Source: an uncultured Verrucomicrobiota bacterium
GTDB taxonomy: Bacteria; Verrucomicrobiota; Verrucomicrobiia; Limisphaerales; UBA1096
Length of the DNA stretch: 30,351 nt
Assembly (NCBI GenBank): GCA_913050205.1
Contig: CAJXAU010000001.1
Location: 1 to 30,351 of the forward strand
Reading direction: 5' to 3'
The position numbers were made by a program, and so were the translations under genes. This document shows positions 1,455-28,865 of this stretch, in pieces. The notes below the pieces were generated by a model, which did not search any database, was not told where the DNA came from, and saw nothing but the letters and a program-made list of their open reading frames with translations. Position 1 is the stretch's first letter; each line of letters begins with the position of its first letter.

Positions 1455-2800
1455 CAATTCAACACCATCCCGCGTCGGATGTACGTGGGCTGATCGAGAT
1501 CCTCCCCCTTGTGGATGGTCGGTTCGCTTTTTTCAAAACGCCCCTTGGACACGATTTCCAGCGGGAGCATTTCCTGCGTGATTTTCTTTCGCTTTTTCCG
1601 GTCCGGCTCCTGCCGTGCGGCCGCTTCGAGAAGGCTGTCCTTGAGCTCTGGCGTGATTGCCTCAGCCGTTGGAGCAGGCGGTGTGTAGGCGAAGCCGCTG
1701 CGGCGCGAGCCACCGGAATCCTCCCCCAGTCCGACGTAACTCGTCTCTCCGGATGGCATGAAGGTTTCCGGAAAACTCACGTCGGTCACATCGCTGGACT
1801 GGTTTTCGCTCGGCGCACTCAACTCCGGCTCGGTATCGGACAATTTGAGCTGATGCGCGATTACGACGGTGACCTGCAGTGCCTCGTCACGCCCCGGCCC
1901 GGACGCGCCGACGACCAAATCGACAGCCGAGGCGTGTTGCTTGATTGCCTCGGTGACTGTGTTCATCTCGGAGAGAGACAATGGCTCGCCTCCGGAGAGG
2001 TGTAACAGGATCGCATTGGCCTCCTTCAACGCCTCCCCTCCGCGTGCCGCCGGGTGGGCCAACATTTTTCCCACCGCCGCCGCCGCACGGTCTTCGCCGC
2101 TCCCCTCGACATGAATCACGGAGCCAAGACTCTGCCGTCCCTGCACAGCCGACTGCAGGTCTGCAAACGAGACATTCAACAGACCCGGCTCGAGAAGCAT
2201 CCGGCTCACGCCGAGCACCGATTCGCAAAGGTGGCGATTCGCAATTTCGAGCGCGTTGTTCAGGCTGGTATCGGTACCGGTCATCTGTACGACGTCCTGA
2301 TTTGAAAAATGGAACACCACGTCAGACGCCTGCTTGAGGTCGCGCAGGCCGCCGGTGGCCGTGTTGCATCGGCGGGTGCCCTCACAATCAAACGGCGAGG
2401 CCGCCACCCCCACCACCAGTGCGCCCGTCTCCTTGGCCAAGCGCGCCACAAGCGAGGCCGCACCAGTGCCGGTGCCGCCTCCCATGCCGGCGATGACAAA
2501 TACAAGGTTTGCGCCCTTGACCAGCTTGGCCAAGCGGTCGCGATCCGACTCCACCGCAGCTCGTGCCAACGCCACATCCCCGCCCGTGCCCAGACCGCAG
2601 GGGATCGCTTGGCCAAGCAGTAGCGTCTTGGATTGATGACAGCGTGACAGGCTCCGGTTGTCGGTATCGAGAGAGTACGACTCGACACCTTCCGGGCCAA
2701 TCATCGCAAGGGTCTCAACTAGTTTCACCCCGGTCTCACCCAAGCCGATTAATCGGATGACCGGTTCACCGCCGCTGATATTCGGTTTGTTCTCCGTCAT
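1454..2800 (-). CDS. ftsZ: Cell division protein FtsZ (divergent)
   Basis: Tubulin signature GMGGGTGTGA, GLGTGG, PFDCEG, NVSFAD, G.GEDRA and C-terminal peptide DLDQPTYIRR. ATG at 2800 overlaps the ftsA stop (ATGA). Directly downstream of ftsA. Confidence 0.93.
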   Translation of the reverse strand: MTENKPNISGGEPVIRLIGLGETGVKLVETLAMIGPEGVESYSLDTDNRSLSRCHQSKTLLLGQAIPCGLGTGGDVALARAAVESDRDRLAKLVKGANLVFVIAGMGGGTGTGAASLVARLAKETGALVVGVAASPFDCEGTRRCNTATGGLRDLKQASDVVFHFSNQDVVQMTGTDTSLNNALEIANRHLCESVLGVSRMLLEPGLLNVSFADLQSAVQGRQSLGSVIHVEGSGEDRAAAAVGKMLAHPAARGGEALKEANAILLHLSGGEPLSLSEMNTVTEAIKQHASAVDLVVGASGPGRDEALQVTVVIAHQLKLSDTEPELSAPSENQSSDVTDVSFPETFMPSGETSYVGLGEDSGGSRRSGFAYTPPAPTAEAITPELKDSLLEAAARQEPDRKKRKKITQEMLPLEIVSKGRFEKSEPTIHKGEDLDQPTYIRRGMVLN

Positions 2801-4020
2801 TTTTTCCCTCCGAAGAGCGATACAAATTGTTTTCGGATTGCCCGGCCGATTCCTTCCCGTCTCGGCGCGGTTTGCGACTGGAATGCGCCGAATTTGATCA
2901 AGCCAACCGGTGTGGCGAATTCCGGTTCGTCCAGCGCGTTCTTGATGCCGCTCACGGTACTCGAGCGACCGATCGCCGAGGGTAAGTTGAACACATCCCT
3001 TGCCAACCGGGTGATGTATGGCGTGCGCGCGCCCCCCCCGCAAAGCACCACGCCGGCGCGGAGATACTCAATCAGCCCTGCCTGTTCAATGTCCTTCGCG
3101 ATTAACTCGAAGGTTTCCTGCAGGCGCATTGACATGATCATTTGCAGGTGGCCGAGATTGACCTTTTTGCCGGGGATCACGCTGTCTGTGGATAGGTCTA
3201 CGGACCGATTGTTTGCCTCGGGGTCGATGATGGCTGAGCCGTGATCGATCTTTAATTGCTCCGCGCGCCCAAGCGGCACCTTGAGCCCGTATGCCAAATC
3301 GTTGGAGACGTGGTCTCCGCCCACCGCCAGCACGCCGGTGTGTTTGATGACACCCGCAGAGTAGATCGCATACTCGGTAGTGCCGGCGCCGAGGTCTATG
3401 ACCAATGTGCCGAGTTCCTTCTGCTCTGTGCTCAACAATGCAAGAGAGGAGGCCAATCCGTTGAACGCGATGTTGTCCACCTCCAGATGCAGTCCGCTGA
3501 CAAGGCGGATGGGGTTTTGAAGCCGGTTGTACCGGCCGCTGACTACATGGACATCAACCTCGATCTTCGCACCCAGCATGCCTTCCGGGTTCAAGACGCC
3601 ACTTTGTCCATCCACACTAAAGTGCTGCCGGATCACGTGCACCACGGAGTGGTCACTCGGTAGATTAATCGCCTTGGCGTTCTTGATGACGTCCTGAATG
3701 TCGGAATCGGTGATTTCACGATCGGCGGAAACGACCGGGTGCACACCCGTGTTGTTGAAGCCCCGCATGTGGCTACCGCTTACCCCGAGAAAAACCGAAC
3801 GAATCTCAACATCCGCCATGTGCTCGGCCTCGACGATCGAGTTGCGCACGTCTTCCTCCACCAATGATGCATCGACGATTTCACCCTTACGCACGCCGCG
3901 GGATTTCGACTGGCCAAGGCCGATGATGTTGACCACCTGATTTTCGCTCACCTCACCAACGGCGACACACACCTTAGAGGTTCCGATCTCGAGGCCAACG
4001 ATGATTTGTGAGTCGCTCAT
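2797..4020 (-). CDS. ftsA: Cell division protein FtsA
   Basis: GLEIGTSKV, GVRKGEIVD, VIDLGAGTT, VGGDHVSNDLA, AEQLKIDHG and LCGGGA actin-fold motifs. Lies between ftsQ and ftsZ. Confidence 0.96.
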   Translation of the reverse strand: MSDSQIIVGLEIGTSKVCVAVGEVSENQVVNIIGLGQSKSRGVRKGEIVDASLVEEDVRNSIVEAEHMADVEIRSVFLGVSGSHMRGFNNTGVHPVVSADREITDSDIQDVIKNAKAINLPSDHSVVHVIRQHFSVDGQSGVLNPEGMLGAKIEVDVHVVSGRYNRLQNPIRLVSGLHLEVDNIAFNGLASSLALLSTEQKELGTLVIDLGAGTTEYAIYSAGVIKHTGVLAVGGDHVSNDLAYGLKVPLGRAEQLKIDHGSAIIDPEANNRSVDLSTDSVIPGKKVNLGHLQMIMSMRLQETFELIAKDIEQAGLIEYLRAGVVLCGGGARTPYITRLARDVFNLPSAIGRSSTVSGIKNALDEPEFATPVGLIKFGAFQSQTAPRREGIGRAIRKQFVSLFGGKK

Positions 4021-4026
4021 GGGAGT

Positions 4027-4986: not shown

Positions 4987-4987
4987 G

Positions 4988-5917
4988 TCAAACTGGTTCC
5001 GGTTGTGCCACCTGCCCGGCCGGCTCGAGCGCCAAATTCACGAGCCGCTGGCACAGCTCCACAAAACTCATTCCCGCCGCCCTCGCGGCCTTGGGCAACA
5101 AACTGGTTTCCGTCATGCCGGGCAGCGTATTGATTTCCAGCAAAACCGGCTCTCCGCTGTCACGCACGATAAAGTCCACCCGCACATAACTCCCCCCACC
5201 CACGGCTGCCAGCGCCTGGACAGCCGCATCCTGAATTCGCGCCGTAGTGGCTTCATCAAACTCAGCGGGGCAGATGTACTCCGTGGCACCTGTGGTGTAC
5301 TTGTTCGTGTAATCATACGCCCCTCTCTTTGGCCGGATCTCCACCACTGGCAGAAGCTCGCCGCCCACAATGCCAACCGTGACCTCGCGGCCTACGATTT
5401 TTTCCTCCACCAAAACCGGCCCACCATGGGTCATTGCCTTGGCCAAGCCGCTTGGCCAAGCGGCAACATCATCCACAAATTCCAGACCAATACTCGACCC
5501 CTGAGTCGCCGGTTTAAGCACCAGCGGGAGTGTCAAACCAAGCGGAAGTCCAGCGCCCTCCTCTTCGATCACAAAGTCGTTGGCCAAAGCCAAGCCTCGG
5601 CCCGCGCATGCCCGCTTGGTTAGCACTTTGTCAAACGCCAAGCGGCTCACCGCAGCACTGCACCCGGTGTACGGCATGCCAAGCGCATCCAACTCGGATT
5701 GCACCGAGCCGTCCTCCCCGTACGTACCGTGCAACGCGAGAAAGACCACGTCCACATTTGGCGGGAGTTGAAAGGTTCCATCTGCTGGATCCACCTCGGT
5801 CACCCGATGCCCGATCTCTCGCAGCGCACCCGCGACCGCAGCACCCGACCGCAGCGAAACCTCCCGTTCCGGAGATGGCCCGCCCAGCATCACGCAGATA
5901 TCAATCGCCTCATTCAT
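4988..5917 (-). CDS. ddl: D-alanine--D-alanine ligase
   Basis: GGPSPEREVSLRSG, LHGTYGEDG, KPATQGSSIG, YDYTNKY, RVDF and LEINTLPGMT. Confidence 0.97.
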   Translation of the reverse strand: MNEAIDICVMLGGPSPEREVSLRSGAAVAGALREIGHRVTEVDPADGTFQLPPNVDVVFLALHGTYGEDGSVQSELDALGMPYTGCSAAVSRLAFDKVLTKRACAGRGLALANDFVIEEEGAGLPLGLTLPLVLKPATQGSSIGLEFVDDVAAWPSGLAKAMTHGGPVLVEEKIVGREVTVGIVGGELLPVVEIRPKRGAYDYTNKYTTGATEYICPAEFDEATTARIQDAAVQALAAVGGGSYVRVDFIVRDSGEPVLLEINTLPGMTETSLLPKAARAAGMSFVELCQRLVNLALEPAGQVAQPEPV

Positions 5918-6863: not shown

Positions 6864-8017
6864 GCCGCCACCTCCTTCGGCTTGGCAACAGGAATGTACA
6901 AATCATCCTCCGACGAATTCTCCCACTGGCACACGTCGTAAATCCGCTGGACCACCTCTTCCGTCGCCTGATCCGCCTTCCACTGGCGCATCGCCTCCGA
7001 CATCGACTTGAGCTTGTTCGGTTTACGGAACAATTCCCTTAGCTGCACGAGGAGCAACTTGGAGGTCAATTGCTTTTGGTGGAAACAACGCGCCGCGCCC
7101 ATCTCGACGAACGTCCGCGCATTCAGCCTCTGGTGATCGTCCACGGCGGAAGGGTACGGCACGAGGATGGCCGGCAGTTCCATCGCAGAAAACTCTGCCA
7201 GCGACGATGCTCCGGACCGGCTCACCGCCAGATCCGCCGCACCAAGCGCATACTCCATTTCGGTCAAAAATGGACGCACCACGGCCCGCAAGCCAAGCGC
7301 ATCATAAGCCGCCCGCACCGGTTCCAGTTCGCGGTTACCGGTGAGGTGAATGAACTGCAATTTCGGCAGCGACTTGGCCAAGCGCGGCAGCGCGCCGAGG
7401 ATCGCCCGGTTAATCGACTCCGCGCCCTGGCTTCCGCCCATCACAAGCAACACCGGTTGGTCGTCCGCCAGACCGAGCACTGTCCGTGCGTCTGGCTTGG
7501 GCACCGGCTCCATCGTGGCTCGTACTGGCATCCCGGTTTTACGCACGTCGGTACCGGACACCTGCGACATGGCATCGGGAAACTGCACAAACACCTCGTC
7601 TGCCAGCGGCGACAACATCTTCACTGCACGCCCCGGAACGGCGTTGGCCTCGTGCAGGAATATTTTTGCACCCATCATCTTTCCGGCGATCACCGGCGGC
7701 GCGCTGGTAAAACCACCCATAGCGAGTACGACCGAAGGACGCTGCTCACGGAAGAGTTTGCGGCAACGACCAAGCGATTGAAAAAAACGGAAGGCAAACT
7801 TGGGCAGGTTGCCGGACAGCCCCACCACCGGCAACGGCTCAACATCCATTCCGTAGGCGGACTTGACCGCGGTCTGGTCGACTTCCTTCGGACTGACCAA
7901 AAGCGTGACTTCACACCCTCTCGCCACGAGCGCATCCCCCACGGCGATCCCCGGGAACAGGTGCCCACCGGTTCCTCCGCAGGCAATGGCAACGCGCTTG
8001 GCCAAGGGTTTATCCAT
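6860..8017 (-). CDS. murG: Undecaprenyldiphospho-muramoylpentapeptide N-acetylglucosaminyltransferase
   Basis: GGTGGHLFPG, HEANAVPG, GGSQGA, RSGASSLAE and VPYP...DHQRLNA. The start could instead be TTG at 8023, overlapping the ftsW stop. Confidence 0.96.
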   Translation of the reverse strand: MDKPLAKRVAIACGGTGGHLFPGIAVGDALVARGCEVTLLVSPKEVDQTAVKSAYGMDVEPLPVVGLSGNLPKFAFRFFQSLGRCRKLFREQRPSVVLAMGGFTSAPPVIAGKMMGAKIFLHEANAVPGRAVKMLSPLADEVFVQFPDAMSQVSGTDVRKTGMPVRATMEPVPKPDARTVLGLADDQPVLLVMGGSQGAESINRAILGALPRLAKSLPKLQFIHLTGNRELEPVRAAYDALGLRAVVRPFLTEMEYALGAADLAVSRSGASSLAEFSAMELPAILVPYPSAVDDHQRLNARTFVEMGAARCFHQKQLTSKLLLVQLRELFRKPNKLKSMSEAMRQWKADQATEEVVQRIYDVCQWENSSEDDLYIPVAKPKEVAA

Positions 8018-8019
8018 CG

Positions 8020-9153: not shown

Positions 9154-9168
9154 AAAAGATGCTTCGAC

Positions 9169-9939: not shown

Positions 9940-10005
9940 GATTATTTAACACTCCTTGTATTTTTGTTGAAAAAATGACGCTTGGCCAAGCGCATTTGGG
10001 GGGGA

Positions 10006-10035: not shown

Positions 10036-11484
10036 TCATCGCGACATGACGTTTGAGATTTCTGGGGCTGGTGAGCCATTGCCGGTTGTTTTTCCCTCCA
10101 CGGTGTAACCGGCCAAGCGCTCGACGTATTGCCGAAACATCTCGCCACGATGTTGATAGCCGTTGACGCTACCGGAATCTTCGCTCGCTGGCGAGAGTAA
10201 AATAACATCCCCCTCCTCGGCCATTTCGTATGCCTGCTGAACCGCATCTTCGAGCGAGTTCACCAGCCGACATGGGGTAAAAAGACTCCATGCAGCACGC
10301 AGTTTTTCACGTGTTTCCCCCATTAAACAGACAGCCTTCACACGCTGGGACAACATGGGTCCTATGTCATGAAACGCCCCGCCCTTGTCCCTTCCCCCGG
10401 CCAGAAGCCAGATATTCGGCCTTCCACCCGGTGCCGGCGGCATCGAGGCGAGGGTTTTTTCCATAGCGGCGAGATTGGTCGACCGGGAGTCGTTGACGAA
10501 CCGGATTCCATTAATCTCAGCCACGGTCTCGCACCGGTGCAGCAGCGGGGGCTGGTTTTTGAGCACCCCGGCGGATTGTTCCAATGGAATTTTCAGCACA
10601 CGCCCCACGGCTAGAGCCGCCATGATAATCTCGGCGTTGTGTGCCCCCTGCAATCGACATTCGCTGAAATCCAAAAGCGGCCCTTCCCAGCCCGGCACGC
10701 GGCTGACGATCAATCCGCGGTTGAGGGAGATATCCGCCCGGCGGTTGCTTGAGCTGAATGTAATCACCTTGGAGGGGATCTCGATCCCAAGTGAACGAAT
10801 CTGTGCCAACGCCTCGCTCTGGACGATTGCCCAGTCGAACGGCTGCTGGTTGGTGAACATCCGCGCCTTGGTTTTCACGTACTCTGCCATCCCGCGATAG
10901 TGATCCTGATGATCCTGCTCAATGTTCATGAGCACGGCGACGGTTGGTTGAAAAAACTGTGTCAATTCCAACTGGAACGAATTCACCGCTAGCATGAGGT
11001 AATCCAACTCCTTCGAGTCGGCCACGGCATCGCAAACCGGACAACTTACCTTGCCGGCTAGGCGCGTTTCACGCTGGGCACCAATCAAGACCTGCTCGAT
11101 GAGTTTTGCCGTCGAGGTTTTGCCGTTGGTTCCGGTCACCGCGATGTTCAGGCAGCGGAGTTGCTGGTAGCCCAGCTCCAGCTCGCCGATCACCGGAACA
11201 TCCCTTTTGCGCAGCGCACGCACCCAGTCCGTCTCGCGTATCCCCCCAACGCTGATCACGCCGAGATCCACCCCGGCCAACAGCTTGGCATCCGGCTTGG
11301 CCAAGCCCAAGTGCACCTCAGCGCCCAGCTTGGCCAAGCGCTTGGCCTCGCCCTGCAGTGTGGTCGAGTCCTTGCGATCCACCGCCACGACCGACGCACC
11401 ACTTTCGCAAAGCAGACGACAAGCCGCCCTGCCCCTCGCGCCAAGGCCGATCAACAAAACTCGTTTTCCGTTCAGCTTGAACAT
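10036..11484 (-). CDS. murD: MurD-family UDP-MurNAc-L-Ala--D-Glu ligase (divergent)
   Basis: IGLG, VTGTNGKTST P-loop, SFQLE, DH, HRCE, NDSRSTN, LAGGRDKG and LLSPA...RG. Directly downstream of mraY. Several canonical residues are substituted (see findings). Confidence 0.88.
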   Translation of the reverse strand: MFKLNGKRVLLIGLGARGRAACRLLCESGASVVAVDRKDSTTLQGEAKRLAKLGAEVHLGLAKPDAKLLAGVDLGVISVGGIRETDWVRALRKRDVPVIGELELGYQQLRCLNIAVTGTNGKTSTAKLIEQVLIGAQRETRLAGKVSCPVCDAVADSKELDYLMLAVNSFQLELTQFFQPTVAVLMNIEQDHQDHYRGMAEYVKTKARMFTNQQPFDWAIVQSEALAQIRSLGIEIPSKVITFSSSNRRADISLNRGLIVSRVPGWEGPLLDFSECRLQGAHNAEIIMAALAVGRVLKIPLEQSAGVLKNQPPLLHRCETVAEINGIRFVNDSRSTNLAAMEKTLASMPPAPGGRPNIWLLAGGRDKGGAFHDIGPMLSQRVKAVCLMGETREKLRAAWSLFTPCRLVNSLEDAVQQAYEMAEEGDVILLSPASEDSGSVNGYQHRGEMFRQYVERLAGYTVEGKTTGNGSPAPEISNVMSR

Positions 11485-12656: not shown

Positions 12657-14048
12657 CTAGGGCTGCAACTCCCCCTTGAGCGCCTCCATGACGCGTTCCA
12701 GTTTTGCCGATCGACTCCCCTTGACGAGCACCACGTCCCCAGGGGTCAGTTTCATCGCCAGTGCCTTGCCTGCGTGAGCGGCATCCTCAAACGCTGCCAC
12801 GTTTGATAGACCCACCGCCTGCGCGGCCCTCACCATGACGTCTGCCCATTGACCCACCGCAATGAGGCCGCTCAGACCGAGCTTGGCAACTTGCTCACCC
12901 GCCTCGTTGTGGGCGGATTCGCTCGATTTACCAAGCTCGGCCATATCACCTAGAACAGCAATGAGCTTGCCCCTAACCGGAAACGCCTTGAGCGTTTCCA
13001 AAGCCGCCTGAAGGGAGTCGGGGTTGGAGTTGTAGGCGTCGTTTATTACGCAGACACCGCCGAGTGTCTGCATCTGCATTCGCATGGACGCCGGTCGACA
13101 GTCCCGCAGGCCCTGATTCAGTTCCTCCTGGCTCAGGCCCAACTCCGTCGCAACCGCCATGGCGATCGCAGCGTTGTGGGCATTATGACGGCCCAGCAGG
13201 TCGACACGGTAGACTCCGTTCCGATCTCCCTTCGGCGAAAGGATTTCAAATTCTGTTCCCTCCCCATCCGGCGTGATACGAACTATTCGCCAGTCGCAGC
13301 CCTCTGATTCCCCGATAGTGACGACTCGCGCCCGGCATCGTTTCCGGATCGTTTCAAGTCCGTCGATGTCCCCGTTGACAAACAGGCAACCGTCCTCCGG
13401 CAATGCCTCAGCCAAAGCACCCTCCTCACGGAGCACTCCGTCCAGGTTTTCAAAAAATTCCAGATGCTCGCGGCCGATACTCGTCAACACGCCGATATTC
13501 GGGCGGATGGCAGAGAGCAGCGCCTCCATCTCGCCCGGATGATTCGACCCAACCTCGATCACAGCCGCACGGTGCGACTCCTGCAGGCGCAGCAGCGTCA
13601 ACGGCACGCCGATATCGTTGTTAAAACTGGCCTCGCTGGAGAGTGTTTCAAATCGTTGGCCGAGCAATGCAGCCAAAATATCCTTCGTTGTAGTCTTGCC
13701 GTTTGATCCCCCTACAGCAATCACCGGAATGTCAAAGTCCTGCCGATAACGGGCGGCCAATTGGCCAAGTGCCTCACGCGTCTCGTCGACGTGAATCGCC
13801 GGGGCCACATCGCCCCCTTGGCTAAGTCGGGAACGGTTCACCAACGCCGCCACAGCTCCTTGGCCAAGCGCTTGGCCGGCGTAGTCGTGACCATCAAACC
13901 GGTCGCCCTCAATCGCAACAAACAGGTCGCCCGGCTTGGCCAAGCGCGAGTCCGTGCAGACACGGTTCACGTACGCCGTACGTTGCCCAGTGACCAACTG
14001 GCCGTGGCAGCTTTCAGCAATAAATTCGAGCGTGCGCGGTTCCATCAT
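12657..14048 (-). CDS. murF: UDP-N-acetylmuramoyl-tripeptide--D-alanyl-D-alanine ligase
   Basis: TDSR, GDRFDGH, GSNGKTTTK, FNNDIGVPLTL, EHLEFF, NDAYNSNP, LGDMAELG and VKGSR. ATGA overlap with the ftsI stop. Confidence 0.96.
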   Translation of the reverse strand: MMEPRTLEFIAESCHGQLVTGQRTAYVNRVCTDSRLAKPGDLFVAIEGDRFDGHDYAGQALGQGAVAALVNRSRLSQGGDVAPAIHVDETREALGQLAARYRQDFDIPVIAVGGSNGKTTTKDILAALLGQRFETLSSEASFNNDIGVPLTLLRLQESHRAAVIEVGSNHPGEMEALLSAIRPNIGVLTSIGREHLEFFENLDGVLREEGALAEALPEDGCLFVNGDIDGLETIRKRCRARVVTIGESEGCDWRIVRITPDGEGTEFEILSPKGDRNGVYRVDLLGRHNAHNAAIAMAVATELGLSQEELNQGLRDCRPASMRMQMQTLGGVCVINDAYNSNPDSLQAALETLKAFPVRGKLIAVLGDMAELGKSSESAHNEAGEQVAKLGLSGLIAVGQWADVMVRAAQAVGLSNVAAFEDAAHAGKALAMKLTPGDVVLVKGSRSAKLERVMEALKGELQP

Positions 14049-16360: not shown

Positions 16361-17290
16361 TTATATTTTTTCCAGCACACGCAACTGCGCACTACGACTA
16401 CGGGGGTTGCGCCCCAACTCCGCCTCGCTTGGCTTGATCGCCTTTCGACTCAGCTCCCTCGCTAGCGGCTCGCGCGGCTCGCGCAACTCCGGTAAATCCA
16501 CCTCGCCTCGCACCGTGTACGGCTTGGCCAATTGCCGACTGAACTGTTTCACCATCCGATCCTCACCGGAGTGAAACGTGATCACCGCCAGCCGGCCACC
16601 TGGTTTCAGTACCGACCAGCCGGCATTCAGCCCGGCCTCCACCTGCCCCAGCTCATCGTTTACCGCCATCCGCAACGCCTGAAACACACCAGTCGCTGGA
16701 TGAGACCGCGCACCTCGCCTTGGGCAGGCTCTCTCCACCACTTCTGCCAACTGCATCGTTGTTTCAAGTCGTTGCATGCTTCGTTGCTCAACGATCGCAC
16801 GGGCGATGCGGCGCGATTTCCGCTCGCCACCCAGTTTCCAAAAAATCTCCGCCAACTCCTCGCATTCGAGTTCGTTGACCAATTGCACCGCCGACATTCG
16901 CTGCCGACGATCCATCCGCATGTCCAGCGGACCGTCCGACTGAAAACTGAACCCCCGTTCCGCCTCGTCGAGTTGCGGAGAACTCACCCCCAAATCCAGC
17001 AACACCCCATCGCAGGAGCGCTTGGCCAAGTGCTTGGCCAAGCCGGCAAATGCCTCGTGATGCAGCTCCAACCGGTCGCCAAACCGGGCCAAGCGCTTGG
17101 CTGCAGCCGTTAACGCCCAATCGTCCCGGTCGAATCCCACCAGTCGACCTTCCGGCGAACACGCCTCGAGGATCGCCTCCGAGTGCCCGCCGCCTCCAAC
17201 CGTCCCATCCACGTATAACCCGCCGCTCACCGGATTCAGTACGGTCAGCACTTCCTCCAGCAGGACGGGTTCGTGAATAAAGTCGGTCAC
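16361..17290 (-). CDS. rsmH: 16S rRNA m4C1402 methyltransferase RsmH (MraW)
   Basis: HEPVLLEE, DGTVGGGGHS, DLGVSSPQLD..RGFSF, PLDMRM, FQALRMAVN, FHSGEDR and NPRSRSAQLR. Confidence 0.97.
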   Translation of the reverse strand: MTDFIHEPVLLEEVLTVLNPVSGGLYVDGTVGGGGHSEAILEACSPEGRLVGFDRDDWALTAAAKRLARFGDRLELHHEAFAGLAKHLAKRSCDGVLLDLGVSSPQLDEAERGFSFQSDGPLDMRMDRRQRMSAVQLVNELECEELAEIFWKLGGERKSRRIARAIVEQRSMQRLETTMQLAEVVERACPRRGARSHPATGVFQALRMAVNDELGQVEAGLNAGWSVLKPGGRLAVITFHSGEDRMVKQFSRQLAKPYTVRGEVDLPELREPREPLARELSRKAIKPSEAELGRNPRSRSAQLRVLEKI

Positions 17291-17313: not shown

Positions 17314-17991
17314 CTATCCGTTTTTCTTCTCAACGTTCTCGGCATAACTCCAAGCCACCCGGCCATTGACGTACACGTCCGTCTTGTAGTCCCGAGCTAT
17401 CTCGATCGCCTCCTGAAATTCCTCCTGGCTCATGCCCTCAATTGACGGCTCCTCCTCCTTCGCAGCGGAAACCGGCCGCACGTTTACCTCGCCGCCTCCC
17501 CCAATCCCCACCAGACGGGTCATGCGATCCAAAAATCCAAATCTGTTTTTCAGCCGAGTAAATATCGAATTCCGCTGCGGCTCCTCTGCAATGAGACTGG
17601 AGCGGAAGGAATCCACTCCGGAACTCTCGCGCAGCGCGATGTCCGACCCCACGAGATCGTTGCGCACCACCCGCACCCGGGTCGGGGTGATTCGACTGTG
17701 CACCTCCACCTGCTCTTCGAGCTGCGGCTTGGCCTTCTCCTGATCTGACTCAAGATGATTACCAGGCGCCTGCGATGAACGATCGATCTCAAGCGGCTCA
17801 ATGAACCCGAACTCCCCCTGATCCTGATCGACCAAGGACGGTTCCACCAACACCACCGATTCTGATTGCTCCGTGGTGCGGGCTTCGGTTTGGACTGACT
17901 CGCTCTTTTGGTTGCCGATCCTACGGGAAAAATGTTTCTCCCGTGGAGACTCGAGCGCTCCGCCCACCGATAAGTACTGCATCAGATTCAT
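17314..17991 (-). CDS. Hypothetical acidic, probably partly disordered protein inside the dcw operon
   Basis: 225-aa ORF that fills the mraZ-rsmH gap. Its ATG overlaps the mraZ TGA (ATGA). No recognisable domain. Confidence 0.75.
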   Translation of the reverse strand: MNLMQYLSVGGALESPREKHFSRRIGNQKSESVQTEARTTEQSESVVLVEPSLVDQDQGEFGFIEPLEIDRSSQAPGNHLESDQEKAKPQLEEQVEVHSRITPTRVRVVRNDLVGSDIALRESSGVDSFRSSLIAEEPQRNSIFTRLKNRFGFLDRMTRLVGIGGGGEVNVRPVSAAKEEEPSIEGMSQEEFQEAIEIARDYKTDVYVNGRVAWSYAENVEKKNG

Positions 17992-18725: not shown

Positions 18726-19799
18726 GTGCGCACGGCCGATTTTGACTACGATCTTCCAGCGGAACTGATCGCCCAGCATCCCGCAGAACGCCGGGATGCC
18801 TCCCGATTGCTGATCGTGGAGCGCTTGGCCAAGCGCTTGGCCCACTGTCAGTTCACCGACCTGTTAGGCTGCATCGAGCCGGGAGACCTGCTGGTCGTGA
18901 ATAATTCCCGCGTCATCCCGGCACGAGTCCGCGGCCAAAAGGAGGGAGACGGCGCCCGGGTCGAAATATTACTGACTGAGCAGCAAGCACCCGGCCAATG
19001 GTGGTGCATGCTCCGCCCGGGCAAACGCATCCACAACGGCACGCAAATCCAGTTGCACGACCTCGACGGAAACCCAACCGACTACTGGGTCACAGCCATC
19101 GAAAAAAACGAAACCGGCAAGTACCTCCTCCAGTTGCCAGACTCTCCGGACGTCTTCCGTATCCTCTCTGAGATTGGAGAGACGCCGCTGCCGCCGTATA
19201 TCGAGCGTAAACCGGTCGACACTCTCGCCGACAGGGAGCGGTACCAAACGGTCTACGCGAAACAGGAAGGATCCGTGGCTGCACCCACAGCCGGGCTTCA
19301 TTTCACCGGGCCATTTCTCGATGAACTGAACGCAAAGGGGATCGGCTTGGCGGAGGTCACCCTGCACGTTGGTCCGGGGACGTTTCAACCGGTGGAGTGC
19401 GACGTGGTCGAGGATCACCCGATGCACGAAGAGTGGTTTGAGATTTCAGCTCAAGCGGCACAGGCCATCAACGAAACCAAACGGAATGGAGGCCGCATTA
19501 TCGCCGTTGGCACAACGAGCATGCGTGTTCTCGAATCGGCTGGTGACGCGAAAAGCAACATCGCTCCTCAGCAAAACCGGACTGACATTTTCATCTACCC
19601 GCCACACGATTTTCGTATCGTCGATGCGTTGCTCACAAATTTCCATCTGCCCAAGTCAACGCTGCTGATGCTGGTCAGCGCGTTCGCTGCTCCCGGTGGA
19701 GAGGCCGGGCGCGAGTTGGTGATGAAGGCCTACGCCGAAGCAGTCGAACAGCGTTACCGTTTTTTCAGCTATGGCGACGCGATGTTTTTGCACCGATGA
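18726..19799 (+). CDS. queA: S-adenosylmethionine:tRNA ribosyltransferase-isomerase
   Basis: FDYDLPAELIAQHP, NNSRVIPAR, PLPPYI, RYQTVYA, GSVAAPTAGLHF, LHVGPGTF, AVGTT, TNFHLPKSTL and YRFFSYGDAM. Confidence 0.97.
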   Translation: MRTADFDYDLPAELIAQHPAERRDASRLLIVERLAKRLAHCQFTDLLGCIEPGDLLVVNNSRVIPARVRGQKEGDGARVEILLTEQQAPGQWWCMLRPGKRIHNGTQIQLHDLDGNPTDYWVTAIEKNETGKYLLQLPDSPDVFRILSEIGETPLPPYIERKPVDTLADRERYQTVYAKQEGSVAAPTAGLHFTGPFLDELNAKGIGLAEVTLHVGPGTFQPVECDVVEDHPMHEEWFEISAQAAQAINETKRNGGRIIAVGTTSMRVLESAGDAKSNIAPQQNRTDIFIYPPHDFRIVDALLTNFHLPKSTLLMLVSAFAAPGGEAGRELVMKAYAEAVEQRYRFFSYGDAMFLHR

Positions 19800-20497
19800 A
19801 ACCGCAACGCCCATTTGTGTTGATAAACATGGCGATGACAGCTGATGGGAAAATTGCGCCACCACATCGCCGCTTTGCCCCGATCGGCAGCCGCCGCGAC
19901 CACGACAATCTTCTCAGGCTACGCACCACTGTGGATGCCGTGATGTGCGGTGCAAGGACGGTGGAGTCCGGTAACATCACGATGGATGCTGGTGGAGCCC
20001 GATACGAACGTCAACGCTTGGCCAAGCGCTTAAACCGACAAAACCTAAGAGTGCTTGTCAGTGGTTCCGGTTCGGTCGATCCGGGTGCCGCCATATTCAA
20101 ATCCCGAATTTCACCCATCCTCATTTTTGTCTCAAGCCAAGCCCCGGCCAAGCGCTTGGCCAAGCTCAAGGCTGTTGCGGATGAGGTGATCGTTTGCGGC
20201 GCCAAGTCGGTAGCGCTTGGCCAGGCGCTTGGCCGCCTGCGCCGCGACTGGAACGTAAAACGCCTCCTTTGCGAAGGAGGCGGTGAGTTGAATTTCGAGC
20301 TGCTCCGGCTTGGCCTTGTCGACGAATTGCACCTGACGATTTGCCCCCGATTGATCGGCGGACGGGATGCCCCGACTATCGCGGACGGTGCCGGTTTTCA
20401 GCGCTTGGCCAAGGCCGCAAAACTGGAGCCGGTTGCCCAGCGGCGTACAGGTGACGAGCTGTTTACGACATGGCGCGTCAGGCCAGAATCTCGTTGA
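19796..20497 (+). CDS. RibD C-terminal / pyrimidine reductase (DHFR-fold) family protein
   Basis: [30 protein letters not shown] and [16 protein letters not shown]. No deaminase domain. ATGA overlap with queA. Confidence 0.85.
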
Positions 20498-21920: not shown

Positions 21921-21922
21921 GT

Positions 21923-24886
21923 TTACTCCTTGGTTAAAACTTCGTCGAGATTGAGAATGGCACTGGCCACGGTCGTCCACGCGGCGTGCTGGGCCATGTC
22001 GACCGATTCGTCGCGCTTGGCCTCGCCAAATTTGAGTAGTTCCTCCGCCCGTTTTTTGTCGGCGGTGAACTCTTTGAGCTGGCTGTCGTAAAGATCGCGG
22101 AACACGCGTTTGCGCAGGTCGTCGGCAGGACGCGAGGTCGTCAACAGGAAGGCGTAGTCGAGCTGCGAATCAAAGTCCGGCCCGCCCTGCTGCAGCACGC
22201 GCTGCGCGAACACCCTCGCGGCCTCGACAAACTGCACGTCGTTCATCGTCACCAACGCCTGCATTGGCGTGTTGGTGCGAGGCCGCTGGATCACGCACTT
22301 CTCACGAGTCGGCGCATCAAACGCCACCATGTTCGGCATCGGCGCAGAGCGTTTCCAGTAGGTGTACATCGAGCGACGGTACAGTTTCTGGTCGTTGTCG
22401 CGCTTGTAAAAAAGCCCACCGTTGAGTGCGACCTCGTTCCAGATGCGCGGCGGCTGATACGGCTTCACGCTTGGCCCACCGATCTGGCCGTTTAGAATGC
22501 CGCTCACCGAAAGGGCGTTGTCGCGGATGAACTCTCCCTGCAACCGAAAACGCGGCGCGCGGGAGAGGTAAATATTCTGAGGATCTTGCTCCAGTTTTTC
22601 ACGAGTCGCAGCGGACACCTGGCGGTACGTGGCCGACATGAGCATCTGCTTGAGGATGCGTTTCACATTCCAGCCGCTGTCGGCAAAGTCGCGCGACAAA
22701 TAATCCAATAGACCCGGGTGGCTTGGCAGCGCGCCGCGTGTACCAAAGTCGGCCACCGTGCTAACCAGTCCGGAGCCGAACAGCATGGCCCAGTAACGAT
22801 TCACTGCCACGCGGGATGTCAGCGGGTGGTCGTCGTCGGTGAGCCACTTGGCCAAGCTCAACCGTTTTTGCGGAGCGTCCTTGGGAAGGGACGGCAACAC
22901 CTTGGGCACGTTCGGGAAAATCTCCTGATCCTTGATCGGCGAGGCGTAGTGACCACGGTTAAGCACGTAGGTTTTGCGCGGCTTGGCCAAGTCGCCCATC
23001 GTCATCACAGTGACGATGCCGTTGTTGTAGTCGTTGACCGATTTCTCGGCCGCCTTGATTTTTTCGTCCAACTGCTTGGCCAAGGGCCAGACGGACTTTT
23101 CATAATACTCCCGCAGCTTGGCCACGTGCTCTTCGCTCAAGACGTCCTGGCCAAGGTTCGCCAACACCTCCTGTGGCAGACTCGACCCGCCGAGTTTGAA
23201 ATACATTCCTCCCTGACCACCATTGTTGACGATCTTGATCAGCAGATGATTGTCGCCCTTGGCCAGATTCAACTCCGCCTTTTCCTGATCGGCGGCCGGC
23301 CCGCGGTTGGCATTGTTTGCCAGGATTTGTTTGCCGTTGAGGAAAACCTTGATGCCGTCGTCGCTGCCCAGAGACACACCCACCTTCTGGGCGTTCGGCG
23401 ACTTCACCGTGCGATAAAAATAGGACGCACTCTTCTCAGGCAAACCGATGGTGTGCACCTTGCCATCCTCATACTTGCGGGCCTCCCACTTTTTGCCGCC
23501 GTATTCCTTTTTCAAATCAACCCCTTTTTCCGGGCCAAAATCCTTGTTGAACGCCTCGTTGCTGTCCTTCGCGCCAAAACTGCCGAGGAATTGCCAACCG
23601 CCGAGTTCCGGCGGGTGCGGCACTTCGTCCACGCGATTGTCAGCGATCCATTCGTCCATCTCCTTCAACGTCGGCTTGGCCTTGGCCCGCTCCGCCTTGG
23701 CCAGTTCCACCGCCGCACGGCGGTTCTCCAGTTCCCGGTTTTGCATCATGGTCGGCACCTTGATCATCGGCGCAGAATTTCCGTTGCGCGTCTGCATTCC
23801 CTTGTCCGAGTTAATGTTGAAGTAGGCGTAAAACTGATAGTACTCCTTCTGCGAAATGGGATCGTACTTGTGGTCGTGGCACTGCGCGCATTCCATCGTC
23901 AAACCAAGCCAGACGTTGGAGGTCGTTTTGACCCGATCGACGTTATATTCCACCCGGTACTCTTCGGCGATCGCCCCGCCCTCGTCGGTCGTGCCGTGGT
24001 TGCGATTAAACCCGGAGGCCACTTTTTGCGCGAGCGTGGCATTCTCCAGTTGATCGCCGGCCAACTGCTCGATGGTAAACTCGTCGAATCGTTTGTTGTC
24101 GTTGTAGGCGTCGATCGTCCAGTCGCGCCATGGCCACATGAAACGCACACCGTCATCATGATACACACTCGAGTCGCCGTATCGTGCAGCATCCATCCAC
24201 GCCAACGCCATCCGCTCTCCGTACCGTTCACTGGCCAGCAATGAATCGACCAGTTTTTCGTAGGCGTTCGGGTCGGTATCGTTCACGAACCGCTCCACCT
24301 CCTCCGGTGACGGCGGCAGGCCGGTCAGGTCAAAGCACACCCGACGAATCAACGTGCGACGATCCGCCTCCTTCGACGGCTTCAATCCCTGCTGCTCCAT
24401 CTTCGCGAGCGTGTAAAAATCGATCGAGTTCTTCGGCCAAGCCTTCTTCTGCACCTTGGGCAGGTTGGGCGTCTTCGGAGTCACGAATGCCCAGTGATCC
24501 TCCCATGCCGCACCCTGTGTGATCCATCGCTCAATTAGTGCAATCTCCTCAGCGGACATCTCCAGTTTGCTCTCCGGCGGAGGCATCAAGTCGTCCTTAT
24601 CGTGGGCCGTAATACGCTGGAAAAGCAGACTCTCTTTCGGTTTGCCGGGAGCGACAATCCGATCCTCGCCCTCTCCGCTGAATAACCCATCGCGTGTGTC
24701 CAGTCGCAGGTCGGCCTTGCGATGTTCCTCGTCCGGCCCGTGACACTGCACACAGTAGTGGGACAACACCGGGCGCACATCGATACCGAATCGCACCTCT
24801 CCCGGCTGGGCTGCCTGCGCTTGGCCAAGCGCAATCACTGCGGCCAAAGGCATCAGCAAACTAATCCGTTGGATAAAAAACATCAT
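21923..24886 (-). CDS. PSCyt1/DUF1549/DUF1553 planctomycete-type cytochrome c domain protein
   Basis: Signal peptide; CxxCH motifs CVQCHGPD and [11 protein letters not shown]; [38 protein letters not shown] and NTP.QAL..MND. Confidence 0.9.
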
Positions 24887-25005
24887 GGACAAAAAAGCTC
24901 AAAAACTCCCTAAGCGAAAAATCTGGCGAAAAAATGCCTGCAAGAACACACAAAATCAAGGTCATGTTGACCCGAATCGGAGTAATTTTATTCGATCATT
25001 CCACT

Positions 25006-27603
25006 TTATTTGGTGCGAAATGCCCGGCTATCGATTAGGGAGAAAAACAGGTCTCCGAATTGGTTTTTTTCTAGCTCGTTTTCTCGGACTAACTGGGCGA
25101 TTTCCCTTCGCTCCACATAGCTCAAGGGCCGGCCTGTGGCATACACCAACAGCTTCTCTGCAAGGCACTTGGAAAAGTCATCGATGTTGCCCACAACCCA
25201 TTTTTTAAGGTCGAGGATACCGTTTATTTTTGTCCCGTCCGGGAGCATCCCGGATGGGTTGATCTCGCTCCCCTGTTCCATCACCCGCTGACCTTTTTCG
25301 TTCTTTTTGAAAACCGGATAGTGTTCCCGCCAGCGGCCCACTGGATCGAAATTCTCAAGCGCCAAACCGATCGGGTCGATTTTTTTGTGACATACATTGC
25401 AGCTGGCATCCGCGGTGTGGGCCTTGAGTTGCTCCCGAATCGTGTTTGCCCCAGTCGTGTCAGGCGTGATCGCCGGGACCGAATCCGGTGGTGGCGGTGG
25501 CGGGTTGCCCAAAATATTTTCCAGCACCCAGACTCCACGCACCACAGGCTGGGTGTGAACCCCGTTGGCAGTGGCTGCCAGCACGGCCGCTTGGCCAAGC
25601 AGCCCCCCATGCCGGCCGCCGCGCTGCAAGGCAACCCGCTGCAACGCGTCGGTGTCCTTCAGGCCTTCGTCGATCCCATAAATTTTCTTGGCGATGGCAG
25701 CGGTAGTGATGGTGAAGTCGGGATCGATAAAATCAGTCATCGGCCGATTCTCCCTGAGCATGGTCTCGAAGAAACGCTCTGACTCGCGCCGGGCCAACTG
25801 CAGTTCCGCTTGGCCAAGCGCAAGGCGCGCATCCGGCATGAGGTGTTCGAGCCTGCGCGTGTCGAGCCACTGCCCCACGAAATGCTCCACAAACGCTGCG
25901 GACGATTTGGCCCGAAGCAGCCGCTTGGCCTGCTGCCGTAGTTCATCATCACGCAACAACGCCCCGGAGCTCGCACTGGCCAACAGTTCGGCATCCGGCG
26001 GGGCGCTCGTCAAAAAATAGGCCAGACGGCTCGCGAGATCGTGTGCGTCTAGTTCGCCCGGCTCGAGAGCACGGTATAGAAATTGCGGTGAGATGAGCAT
26101 CGTGCGGATGGCCAGATGAACTCCCTCGTTAAACGTGTGGCCTTGGCCAAGGTGTTCGCGCATTAGTTGCCAGTAGGCATCGACGTCCCGGTTGGTCGGC
26201 GGCTTGCGATTCACCCGCGAAAGTAACTGGCGCAATACATCCCGGGCGTGGGCCTCCTCACTACGGTCGCCACGGTCACCGATCAGTTTGGCCTGCAGTT
26301 CCCGGCGGCGTTTTTCCGCGGGACTCTCGATGACCCTGAGCGGGCCTTCGATGATGGTGCGATGAATGTCGAGTCCCGGCCCGTCCTCAAAGTGCTCGTA
26401 CGAGATCGTGTCGATATAGAGCACCGGATCCTTGAGCATTTCTTTGATGAGTTTTTCCGTGTCGGGGTGATCCATCGTCGCTCTGGACAGGTCGAGATCT
26501 TCACGGGCCAAATGCTTTTTGATGCGCCGCCAGCCGATGCCTCCGCGAATCGGGTTACCGAGTTTCACCTGTTGCCACGCAGCGAGCAGGCGCGGCTTGG
26601 CCTTGAACTTTGCGCGAAGCATCTGCTCGTAGGCCGGCTTGTCACCGCGGTCGCCGTCCAGCGGCGCATTTGCGAAGTAAAAAACAATCGTGTCGCCCTT
26701 GTGCAGTTCGGCCACAAATTCAAACTCGGCCGGTGATTGTCGAGACACCTCGACTGCATGAAGCAGACGCAGACTCGGGACTTTTACATCATCGCTTTGC
26801 GACACCGGCTTGGCCCGGAGTTCAAGTCTCATTGGCTGGTCGTGCTCCGGTTTAAACGCAGAGAGGCTCATCCTCACCCGGTACGTGCCGGAGGTGTGCA
26901 CTTCGAATTTGCTTGGCCAAGTGCAGCTGCGCATCACCGGGTCGTGCTTGGTCACCAGTCGCATGGCGCCGCCACGGATGCTGCTCGCAGAGTAACTGAT
27001 CGCCATGTCTTCCGGCTCGACCACCACGGTCTCGCGCTTGGCCAAGCGCCGGTTTGGCAGAATAATCCGGTCGGCCACATCCGCCGCAGCGAGGGTGTAG
27101 GCCTCCAGTAGCGGAGGAGACAGGATGAGTGATTCGCCGATGTTATCGAATCCGTGCCGCTCAACATCTGGCGGAAAACTGTCCGGCAATTCGAACCCGA
27201 TGCCGAAAATTGAGCGGATGCTGTTTCGATACTCTGCGCGGTTGAGCCTGCGCGCCACCGTACCGCCCACCGGGGAGTGTCGTGTCAATTGCGTGTCCAG
27301 CCAGGCAACAAACGACTCACGCTCCACGCCGAACGGTTGCCGTTTTTTTGCGGGCGGCATTTCCCCGGCGGCAAGCACGTTCATGACACGCTCCCAATGG
27401 TTGCGGACAGTCGCGCGGCTCCAGTCAATCTCGGAAGCCTCGAGCACCACACCACCCTTGCCAGTGTCGGTGTCGTGACAGTCGAGACAGTACGCGTTGA
27501 GAAATTCCGCCGGGGCTCGGGGTATAGGTTCAGCACCCTGCGCCGTGCCAAAAAGAGCGCAACCGAAGAGGACAAACAGCAACCGAAAACCACCGCCGAT
27601 CAT
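25006..27603 (-). CDS. DUF1592/DUF1588/DUF1587/DUF1595/DUF1585 planctomycete-type cytochrome c domain protein
   Basis: Signal peptide; CLDCHD and CNVCHKKIDPIGLALENFD; RRLNRAEYRN, LISPQFLYR, LASRLAYFL...PD, FVGQWL and T.PVVRGVWVLENILG. Confidence 0.9.
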   Translation of the reverse strand: MIGGGFRLLFVLFGCALFGTAQGAEPIPRAPAEFLNAYCLDCHDTDTGKGGVVLEASEIDWSRATVRNHWERVMNVLAAGEMPPAKKRQPFGVERESFVAWLDTQLTRHSPVGGTVARRLNRAEYRNSIRSIFGIGFELPDSFPPDVERHGFDNIGESLILSPPLLEAYTLAAADVADRIILPNRRLAKRETVVVEPEDMAISYSASSIRGGAMRLVTKHDPVMRSCTWPSKFEVHTSGTYRVRMSLSAFKPEHDQPMRLELRAKPVSQSDDVKVPSLRLLHAVEVSRQSPAEFEFVAELHKGDTIVFYFANAPLDGDRGDKPAYEQMLRAKFKAKPRLLAAWQQVKLGNPIRGGIGWRRIKKHLAREDLDLSRATMDHPDTEKLIKEMLKDPVLYIDTISYEHFEDGPGLDIHRTIIEGPLRVIESPAEKRRRELQAKLIGDRGDRSEEAHARDVLRQLLSRVNRKPPTNRDVDAYWQLMREHLGQGHTFNEGVHLAIRTMLISPQFLYRALEPGELDAHDLASRLAYFLTSAPPDAELLASASSGALLRDDELRQQAKRLLRAKSSAAFVEHFVGQWLDTRRLEHLMPDARLALGQAELQLARRESERFFETMLRENRPMTDFIDPDFTITTAAIAKKIYGIDEGLKDTDALQRVALQRGGRHGGLLGQAAVLAATANGVHTQPVVRGVWVLENILGNPPPPPPDSVPAITPDTTGANTIREQLKAHTADASCNVCHKKIDPIGLALENFDPVGRWREHYPVFKKNEKGQRVMEQGSEINPSGMLPDGTKINGILDLKKWVVGNIDDFSKCLAEKLLVYATGRPLSYVERREIAQLVRENELEKNQFGDLFFSLIDSRAFRTK

Positions 27604-27608
27604 GGCGA

Positions 27609-28865
27609 CTAGGAAAACAGTTCGTTGAGGTTGCGCTTGGCGTTGGAGAATCGATCCACCTCCATACCCATTTGCTGCATTAGCGTGATGTACAGGTCGC
27701 CCAGCAACGGCGCGCCATCCGCCTTGGGGTCAATCGCAACGTGGCTACCGTGCCGGAAACCGCCACCCGCCACCACGGTTGGCAGGTCATTGTTCGTGTG
27801 GTCGCTCGCGTTGCCCATGCCGGTGCCCATCATCACGATCGTGCTATCCAGCAACGGGCGCCCCTCGGCATCGGTCTTGGCCTTGAGTTGCGAAATGAAA
27901 TTCTCGAGACATTTCATATGCTCCACCTCCACGCGAACGAGATCCTGAATTTTCTCCCCGTCATTTCCGTGGTGCGACAGCGCATGGTAACCAGCCTGTA
28001 ACGTCTCGCCACCGATCGTGAACACCTGCCCCAGCCCGGCGAGGAACATCGTCATCACTCGTGTCGAATCCGTCTCCAGCGCCAATGCCATCAAGTCGTA
28101 CATCAACTGCTCCGCCTCTATCATCAGGTTCGGCGCGATCGGGTCGTAGCCCGGCAGTTTGTAGTCCGTCTTGGGCAGCGGCAGGTCAATCCCGTTCAAC
28201 TGGCGGGTCATCCGTTTTTCCACCTCGCGTACGGAGCCGAAATACTCGTCCAACTTGTGTCGATCACGGGCAGACACCCTGCCCTGCAGTCGCTTGGCTT
28301 CGTTCCGAACAAGGTCCAGCGAACTTCGCCCGCTTTTGAGCAGGTACTCCGTGTGCGCCCGATCTGCCGCCGAGGCGAACAGTTTATTATAAAAAACAGA
28401 CGGCCGCTGGATCATCGGCAGTGCCACCCCGTCATGATTGTAACTCATGAACCGGCTCGCTTGGCCTGCCGTGAGTTGGATCGACTCGAATCGAGTCGCT
28501 TGGCCAAGCGCACGCGCAACAATCTGGTCCAGAGACACCTTGCCAACCTTTTGGCCGCAAAGGTAGTTCGCCCACTCGCCATGGCCATGCTTGGCCCGGT
28601 GGTCGAGTCCGGAGAAAATCGTGAAATCACCGCGATGGCCGGCCAAGGGCTGAAGCGTCTGCGACATCGTGTAGCCGCGCCCGGTTTCCTTCGGGTAGAT
28701 GGCTTCCTGATGAAAACCGAGATAACCGCCCACGCAAACCAAGCGCTTGGCCTTGGCCCCACCAGACGCAGCACCCAGCACAGGCACCGACTCCAGCATC
28801 GGAAGCGCCAGCGACACTCCGGTTGCCTTCAGGAAACGACGTCGATCAGTCTTGTTCTCCAGCAT
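27609..28865 (-). CDS. DUF1552 (HXXSHH) family protein, probable Tat substrate
   Basis: RRRFLK...LALPMLES signal, SLDQIVA, D.YF.SVREVEKR, LALETDSTRV.T, HALSHH and LLDSTIV..GTGM...H...DLP.VVAGG. GGAG ribosome-binding site before ATG 28865. Confidence 0.9.
   Translation of the reverse strand: MLENKTDRRRFLKATGVSLALPMLESVPVLGAASGGAKAKRLVCVGGYLGFHQEAIYPKETGRGYTMSQTLQPLAGHRGDFTIFSGLDHRAKHGHGEWANYLCGQKVGKVSLDQIVARALGQATRFESIQLTAGQASRFMSYNHDGVALPMIQRPSVFYNKLFASAADRAHTEYLLKSGRSSLDLVRNEAKRLQGRVSARDRHKLDEYFGSVREVEKRMTRQLNGIDLPLPKTDYKLPGYDPIAPNLMIEAEQLMYDLMALALETDSTRVMTMFLAGLGQVFTIGGETLQAGYHALSHHGNDGEKIQDLVRVEVEHMKCLENFISQLKAKTDAEGRPLLDSTIVMMGTGMGNASDHTNNDLPTVVAGGGFRHGSHVAIDPKADGAPLLGDLYITLMQQMGMEVDRFSNAKRNLNELFS

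Follow-up and report, generated by a model that had tools for sequence, protein, structure and literature searches.

A genus-specific palindrome kept at the DNA level and written into proteins in three reading frames in marine Verrucomicrobiales

Why should a 10-nucleotide (nt) palindrome, CTTGGCCAAG, occur 32 times in a stretch of verrucomicrobial DNA for which dinucleotide shuffles predict 0.06 copies, and be translated there into three unrelated peptides? The stretch, called the window below, spans 30,351 nt and is the entire contig CAJXAU010000001.1 (assembly GCA_913050205.1), the longest of a 2.35-Mb, 61%-complete metagenome-assembled genome (MAG) referred to as G000; all genomes compared here are incomplete MAGs of uncultured organisms. 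The original prediction, made from the letters of the window, held that the constraint acts on the DNA rather than on the peptide and shapes proteins at tolerant positions, as uptake sequences do. In our view it is established that the constraint acts on the DNA and reshapes the proteins. The word is a genus-specific, highly iterated palindrome kept at the DNA level, and most likely an uptake or self-recognition signal linked to transformation, a reading to which we give a probability of about 0.5.

A word in the DNA and its trace in the proteins

The full form of the word is S-CG-CTTGGCCAAG-CG-S. Throughout G000, the 10-mer is found 2216 times, or about once per kb, the 12-mer GCTTGGCCAAGC 1360 times and the 14-mer CGCTTGGCCAAGCG 922 times. 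The consensus is sharp, as any one-letter change in the inner six letters leaves just 3 to 20 copies, and the CG flanks accompany 71 to 78% of all copies and 87 to 89% of the non-coding ones. Nearly every flank is unique (4343 of 4348), which means that the word is no piece of some longer repeat. In the alignments of the division and cell-wall (dcw) region described below, there is no excess of insertions or deletions at motif columns (gap fraction 5.0%, versus 5.7% in the background), and the copies arise by point substitution, not by insertion.

Motif density is 3.6 times higher in non-coding DNA (2.9 per kb) than in coding DNA (0.80 per kb), the densest setting being the space between convergent genes (5.85 per kb). 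From gene to gene it is nearly uniform in G000, with only a mild dip in the genes of lowest GC content at third codon positions (0.60 versus about 0.83 per kb), and a search for motif-free islands, such as atypical or foreign genes without the word might form, found none in this MAG. The essential proteins on which emphasis was first placed are therefore no special case. Genome-wide, the first tenth of genes seems enriched in motifs (326 versus about 140), which likely reflects over-long calls of open reading frames (ORFs).

The 2216 copies in G000 are read as Leu-Ala-Lys (LAK) in 942 cases, Leu-Gly-Gln (LGQ) in 716 and Trp-Pro-Ser (WPS) in 108, the remaining 450 being non-coding or at a gene edge. 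As had been predicted, these tripeptides are in excess over the whole proteome, with observed to expected ratios of 4.55, 4.85 and 4.69, respectively, while their permutations stay at about 1. Together with GQA (4.75), whose excess is due to the word being read as LGQ-A, they are the four most over-represented tripeptides of the proteome. The predicted codon bias is equally clear: the exact motif codons spell 73% of LAK, 79% of LGQ and 72% of WPS, where codon usage would give 5.5%, 2.4% and 3.8%. Tripeptides spelled otherwise are close to chance, with 435, 216 and 43 occurrences against 352, 210 and 33 expected (1.0 to 1.3 times), which indicates that the word added about 2000 tripeptides to the proteome, beyond recoding existing peptides. 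These forced tripeptides amount to about 0.8% of residues. Use of the frames follows the expected commonness of each peptide, at 3.3 to 3.8 times expectation in all three. The excess is replicated in an independent species, G010 (LAK 4.55, LGQ 4.44, WPS 9.45); in the outgroup G031, which has about 61% GC and 3 copies in 400 kb, the ratios are 1.23, 0.96 and 1.41.

Orthologues tell whether the DNA or the peptide is conserved. The dcw region was taken from 20 congeners and 3 other families, and 18 genes were aligned. Of the 31 distinct dcw sites, 16 occur in both deep clades of the genus. When G000 is compared with clade-B species, 86% of nucleotides are identical inside motifs and 72% outside; where G000 and these distant motif-bearing species share the same residue, the codon is also identical in 89% of cases inside motifs and 51% outside. 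Against motif-poor congeners, nucleotide identity is instead 59% inside and 67% outside (38 and 35% for codons), and against the outgroups 40% inside and 58% outside. Among motif-free species the motif columns are indeed less conserved than other columns: 62 versus 80% between motif-poor species, 37.5 versus 50% between these and outgroups, and 54 versus 61% between outgroups. Among motif-bearing species they are more conserved (82.5 versus 74.6%). In the outgroups, the Leu, Gly or Trp anchor often pre-exists and the third position (Lys or Gln) is the most variable. These comparisons show conservation of sites across species, of the kind examined for highly iterated palindromes, for coding DNA.

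The expectation that motif sites would fall in variable columns of orthologues lacking the motif is therefore borne out, and three observations speak for a constraint on DNA rather than on the peptide: a tripeptide excess limited to certain codons, conservation at silent sites, and weakly conserved columns. Copies are written wherever the frame gives a tolerable peptide (L-A-K, L-G-Q-A or A-W-P-S), usually at an existing anchor with a variable third residue. Once made, they are held unchanged in all motif-bearing species, silent positions included.

The copies are also ordered along the DNA. They fall into 611 clusters, with spacings below 200 nt over-represented and those of 200 to 800 nt under-represented, and distances between neighbours peak at 12, 21, 30, 42, 51, 60, 72, 81, 93, 102 and 114 nt. 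Adjacent pairs at 12 nt (87 cases) form a second palindrome, CCAAGCGCTTGG; arrays of the motif have two units at most. For 1063 motif pairs 14 to 400 nt apart, the Rayleigh power reaches 91 at a period of 10.45 to 10.5 nt. Power is still 51 when spacings divisible by three are set aside, 36 between copies that use different frames of the same gene, 14.9 between copies in different genes or in non-coding DNA (n = 256) and 14.6 where both copies are non-coding (n = 66). The signal is present at 14 to 100 nt as well as at 100 to 250 nt, and reaches to about 250 nt. Loci pooled from other species show the phasing again (power 11.5 at 10.55 nt); it is weak in a 376-kb sample of G010 (4.4, n = 104), and is not seen for non-motif L[AG][KQ] tripeptides. 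An origin in the periodicity of alpha-helices (3.6 residues, or 10.8 nt) was judged unlikely because the signal lasts to 250 nt, holds between genes and is found in non-coding DNA; power at 10.8 nt is always below that at 10.45 nt. Helical phasing suggests joint binding of several readers to one face of the DNA, and offers a concrete clue to the binding mode of the reader.

Distribution in the genus and loss of competence genes

The word is restricted to a single genus of marine Verrucomicrobiales, represented by 25 species besides G000 (24 in a first draw and an extra one, G041). Among the first 24, the 12-mer is present in 330 to 1852 copies in 19 species and in 6 to 14 copies in five motif-poor ones, which form a clade with about 3 copies per Mb. 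G041 has 53 copies of the 14-mer, or 17 per Mb, versus 392 per Mb in G000. In 16 genomes from other families of the order 0 to 3 copies were counted, and a survey of 400 genomes from 185 other genera of the phylum gave at most 6 copies of the 12-mer. In public records, the 22-nt tandem is found in marine MAGs whose labels read Verrucomicrobiales, Verrucomicrobia, Verrucomicrobiae or Verrucomicrobiota. Carriage of the word by phages was considered and rejected, with 0 viral contigs containing the tandem. One record filed as 'Methanobacteriota archaeon BH15' (JAERSV010000037.1, 47% GC) has the tandem and four motif copies, and is probably of verrucomicrobial origin, having been mis-binned with an archaeon.

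Is the scarcity of the word in some congeners ancestral or derived? In a tree of 11 dcw proteins rooted on other families, the motif-poor clade is sister to the subclade of G000, inside the genus, which means that the word is ancestral and was then lost there. Base composition has shifted as well: GC content at the loci examined is about 40 to 42% in three motif-poor species (G008, G004 and G001), versus 56 to 65% in motif-rich ones, and about 49 to 51% in G041, so that the genus ranges from about 40% to 65%. High GC was rejected as a cause of the word, since the outgroup G031, of equal GC content, is nearly devoid of it. No replacement palindrome was found in 314 kb of the motif-poor G001. 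There, LAK is still at 2.0 times expectation, versus 1.23 in the outgroup, and TTGGCCAA occurs 27 times in the same 314 kb; both may be relics of the lost word, one in the proteins and one in the DNA.

The losses coincide with those of competence genes. Of 20 motif-rich genomes, 14 gave a match to comEC, 14 to dprA and 14 to comM (70% of the gene-genome tests), a rate in line with MAG completeness, and dprA and comM are present in G000 itself. The five motif-poor genomes and G041 yielded none of the three, while mutS and secretins are kept in the motif-poor genomes tested. Synteny locates the missing genes: in G001, G004, G006 and G008 the conserved neighbours of comM lie side by side and the gene itself is gone, a loss that occurred independently in G041; dprA is lacking between conserved neighbours in G006 and G008, was lost together with the adjacent right-hand gene in G001, and is independently missing in G041 and G011. 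These are real, clean deletions. The background of such losses is given by G001, where 9 of 76 genes of G000 are missing in synteny, all of them metabolic.

G012, still motif-rich, has a remnant of comM (G012:C90, L212:2698-3405) that lacks the ATPase core and aligns over no more than residues 1-38 and 308-508, and which may betray a recent loss of competence. Motif density tracks the gene losses here too: that of G012 is the lowest of its subclade, and that of G011 is the lowest among motif-rich clade-B species. Lineages in which both comM and dprA are deleted are the low-GC ones (from about 60% down to 40 to 50%), as would fit the loss of recombination-linked, GC-biased gene conversion after transformation was lost.

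Copies and genes of the window

The gene calls used are our own, those of the window being checked against Pfam. The window carries a dcw cluster with mraZ, rsmH, ftsI, Mur ligase genes, mraY, ftsW, murG, murB, ddl, ftsQ, ftsA and ftsZ, and beyond it queA, a RibD_C gene and DUF1501, DUF1549, DUF1553, DUF1592 and DUF1552 genes, which are typical of the Planctomycetes-Verrucomicrobia-Chlamydiae (PVC) superphylum. All motif positions named in the original prediction are present, and its peptides, recovered here as they stand in the list, match for FtsZ, MurG, MurD, the MurF-like ligase, FtsI, RsmH, QueA and Ddl; position and frame are likewise confirmed for the DUF1553, DUF1552 and DUF1592 copies, as is the use of two frames, LAK and WPS, by the two ddl copies 13 nt apart. 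By frame, the 32 copies divide into 19 LAK, 7 LGQ, 2 WPS and 4 non-coding:

255..264, non-coding, full 14-mer, upstream of an FGE-sulfatase gene
283..292, 5' edge of the FGE-sulfatase ORF; the TTG of the copy (284) is the first possible start codon
2432..2441, ftsZ (gene on the - strand), LAK frame, ARLAKE
2525..2534, ftsZ (gene on the - strand), LAK frame, DRLAKL
2608..2617, ftsZ (gene on the - strand), LGQ frame, LLGQAI; common to nearly all motif-rich congeners
5438..5447, ddl, LAK frame, SGLAKA
5451..5460, ddl, WPS frame, AAWPSG; in 17 of 17 motif-rich species aligned
7373..7382, murG, LAK frame, PRLAKS
7997..8006, murG, LAK frame, KPLAKR
9981..9990, non-coding, spacer between murD and a LysM gene, full 14-mer
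11296..11305, murD, LAK frame, LGLAKP
11329..11338, murD, LAK frame, KRLAKL
13859..13868, Mur ligase gene (murF-like), LGQ frame, ALGQGA
13935..13944, Mur ligase gene (murF-like), LAK frame, SRLAKP
15602..15611, ftsI, LAK frame, NGLAKR
17021..17030, rsmH, LAK frame; 12-nt tandem with the copy at 17033
17033..17042, rsmH, LAK frame; with the copy at 17021 gives LAKHLAKR
18824..18833, queA (gene on the + strand), LAK frame, ERLAKR
20017..20026, RibD_C-domain gene, LAK frame
20155..20164, RibD_C-domain gene, LAK frame; 138 nt (about 13 helical turns) after the copy at 20017
20404..20413, RibD_C-domain gene, LAK frame
22847..22856, PSCyt/DUF1549/DUF1553 gene, LAK frame
22982..22991, DUF1553 gene, LAK frame; 135 nt after the copy at 22847
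23075..23084, DUF1553 gene, LAK frame; 93 nt after the copy at 22982
24820..24829, DUF1553 gene, LGQ frame
25590..25599, DUF1592/DUF1588 gene, LGQ frame
25809..25818, DUF1592 gene, LGQ frame; 219 nt (about 21 turns) after the copy at 25590
26142..26151, DUF1592 gene, LGQ frame
26912..26921, DUF1592 gene, WPS frame
27037..27046, DUF1592 gene, LAK frame; 125 nt (12 turns) after the copy at 26912
28499..28508, DUF1552 gene, LGQ frame
29772..29781, non-coding, full 14-mer

Some features of these genes deserve mention in their own right. The true start of the FGE-sulfatase ORF is probably downstream of the TTG at 284. The listed ftsZ ORF (1454-3043) overlaps ftsA by about 250 nt and its tubulin domain begins at residue 96; we took the start at 2800. 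Between 6860 and 14048, the dcw cluster has just two Mur ligase genes, murD (10036-11484) and a murE/murF-like gene (12657-14048); there is no murC between murG and murB, and a gene with a LysM domain lies between murD and ftsW. A 225-amino-acid ORF between mraZ and rsmH (17314-17991) has no Pfam match; kept across the genus at 42 to 76% identity, it must be a real lineage-specific gene.

Possible readings: uptake signal, protein-binding site or repair product

Three families of repeated sequences invite comparison. Like the DNA uptake sequences (DUS) of Neisseriaceae and the uptake signal sequences (USS) of Pasteurellaceae, the word occurs about once per kb, within genes as well as in spacers, is read in several frames, inflates tripeptides at weakly conserved residues (PMC2817400), is denser between genes, is common to related species and is tied to the competence machinery. 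In contrast to them it is a perfect palindrome of 10 to 14 nt, its copies are clustered and helically phased, no ComP-like pilin receptor was found for it, and its tripeptide excess is about 4.7-fold, versus about 2-fold at poorly conserved residues for USS and DUS (Findlay and Redfield 2009, PMC2817400). The likeness to uptake sequences that the original prediction drew holds in two respects, the same protein-level pattern in USS and DUS and the decay of the word where competence genes are deleted.

Like HIP1 (GCGATCGC) and the alternative palindromes of cyanobacteria, the word is perfectly palindromic and hyper-abundant in coding and non-coding DNA, spreads by substitution without insertions or deletions (PMC5861425, PMC4390886, PMC13756078), has sites conserved between species (here in coding DNA), is lost in some nested lineages and correlates in abundance with competence and pilus genes. 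It differs in length (10 to 14 versus 8 nt), in periodicity (10.45 nt versus 10 to 90 kb), in range (one genus versus a phylum) and in its enzymes: HIP1 has DmtA and DmtC, while no cognate orphan methyltransferase from four families goes with the present word. With repetitive extragenic palindromes (REP), bacterial interspersed mosaic elements (BIME), Correia elements and other miniature palindromic repeats it shares very many palindromic copies and enrichment between genes. Those elements are 30 to 150 nt long, inserted and mostly intergenic, whereas the present word is placed in frame inside genes by substitution and has unique flanks; insertions with shared flanks, as in REP, miniature inverted-repeat transposable elements (MITE) and Rickettsia palindromic elements (RPE), were not found. 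Our literature searches returned neither a published uptake sequence for the phylum Verrucomicrobiota nor a description of TTGGCCAA, or of HIP1 or uptake sequences, in Verrucomicrobia. What is new here is the confinement to a genus, the helical phasing, the lack of a common methyltransferase family and the decay with deletion of comM and dprA.

We favour a role in transformation because of the repeated coincidence with competence-gene loss and because of the parallels with USS/DUS and with HIP1, whose abundance correlates with pilus and competence genes and which raises transformation efficiency (PMC13756078). In such a scheme a receptor of the competence machinery, probably dimeric, would prefer DNA bearing the palindrome; fragments carrying the word would be taken up and recombined more often; and molecular drive, or selection for the uptake of self DNA, would spread and preserve it despite its cost to proteins. 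Several points weigh against this view. The link to competence is a correlation over two clear and two weaker independent losses, in lineages whose base composition changed too, and it was observed throughout in uncultured MAGs, with no receptor identified. ComEA, searched for with TIGR00426 in five genomes, gave no match above the family cut-off. G012, in which comM is broken, keeps 224 14-mers per Mb, a figure that fits a recent loss and equally independence from comM. comEC, dprA and comM are found in many bacteria that have no uptake word. The uptake sequences known to us are non-palindromic, and we know of no report of helical phasing or clustering among them; clustered copies are explained at least equally well by a role in DNA binding or structure.

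This leads to the main rival: the word could be the site of an abundant, sequence-specific dimeric protein that is associated with the nucleoid or organises the chromosome, with selection for its binding preserving the sites and the loss of competence being coincidental or secondary. It gives the simplest reading of the phasing (power 91, n = 1063), and the 611 clusters, the fit of a perfect palindrome to a dimer and the conservation of sites across species agree with it, as does the structural role argued for HIP1 by Xu et al. 2018 (PMC5861425). However, our analysis yielded no candidate protein, the phasing signal is weak in G010, the scheme alone would not lead one to expect that the word is repeatedly lost along with comM and dprA, and a multivalent uptake receptor would favour phased copies as well. 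We think it less likely than a role in transformation; the two readings are not mutually exclusive.

The core of the word holds the classical restriction sites GGCC and TGGCCA, and a process acting on such sites might explain it differently. An orphan methyltransferase would mark TGGCCA or GGCC, and biased mismatch repair would make the word out of near-matches and restore decayed copies, as proposed for HIP1 (Elhai 2015). The scarcity of one-letter variants around a very sharp consensus speaks for such a ratchet, and so do the presence of mutS and the conservation of sites, which a correcting process would also produce. Yet PF00145 is found in 2 of 26 genus genomes (the motif-rich G010 and a motif-poor one) and PF01555 in 1 of 26, motif-poor; PF02086 and PF02384 are missing in G000, G010 and G019, and the motif-poor G008 alone has them. 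Thus none of the four families searched (C5, N4/N6, Dam-type and N6_Mtase) goes with the word. In addition, helical phasing is left unexplained and mutS is kept in the clade without the word, which makes the ratchet improbable. Far less credible still are selection for the LAK, LGQ and WPS peptides, an RNA hairpin or terminator, a tiny mobile element or an assembly artefact. LAK-like tripeptides would suit amphipathic helices, but one DNA word yields three unrelated peptides and is denser in non-coding DNA, and the whole excess rests on one codon spelling. The density peak between convergent genes also counts in favour of this group of readings; a nearby T-run accompanies just 16% of non-coding copies, and an intrinsic terminator role was rejected. 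Insertion of a mobile element was also discarded, there being no insertions or deletions at the sites and unique flanks. An artefact of assembly is at odds with the presence of the word in MAGs from many independent studies.

Whatever reads the word, annotators of these proteins should take their LAK, LGQ and WPS 'motifs' as driven by DNA and not as functional. To our knowledge, uptake sequences are experimentally known from just two families, and the purpose of HIP1-like palindromes has been debated for 30 years. A bolder proposal, possible but doubtful at present, is that the word is the first of uptake type in the PVC superphylum, recognised by a multivalent receptor that acts as a dimer and prefers copies lying on the same side of the helix, and that loss of comM, dprA and comEC ended both the drive and a recombination-linked GC bias. 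If this were true, the genus would record, in up to four independent lineages at differing stages, the relaxation of a genome (from about 60% to 40% GC) and of its proteome after transformation is lost. Some 20 species preserve the word down to its silent sites, and it is eroding where competence genes were cleanly excised, in lineages that are down by up to 20 GC points. This natural experiment provides a comparative test of the uptake explanation for iterated palindromes, of the cost of such words to proteins, and of recombination as a force maintaining high GC content.

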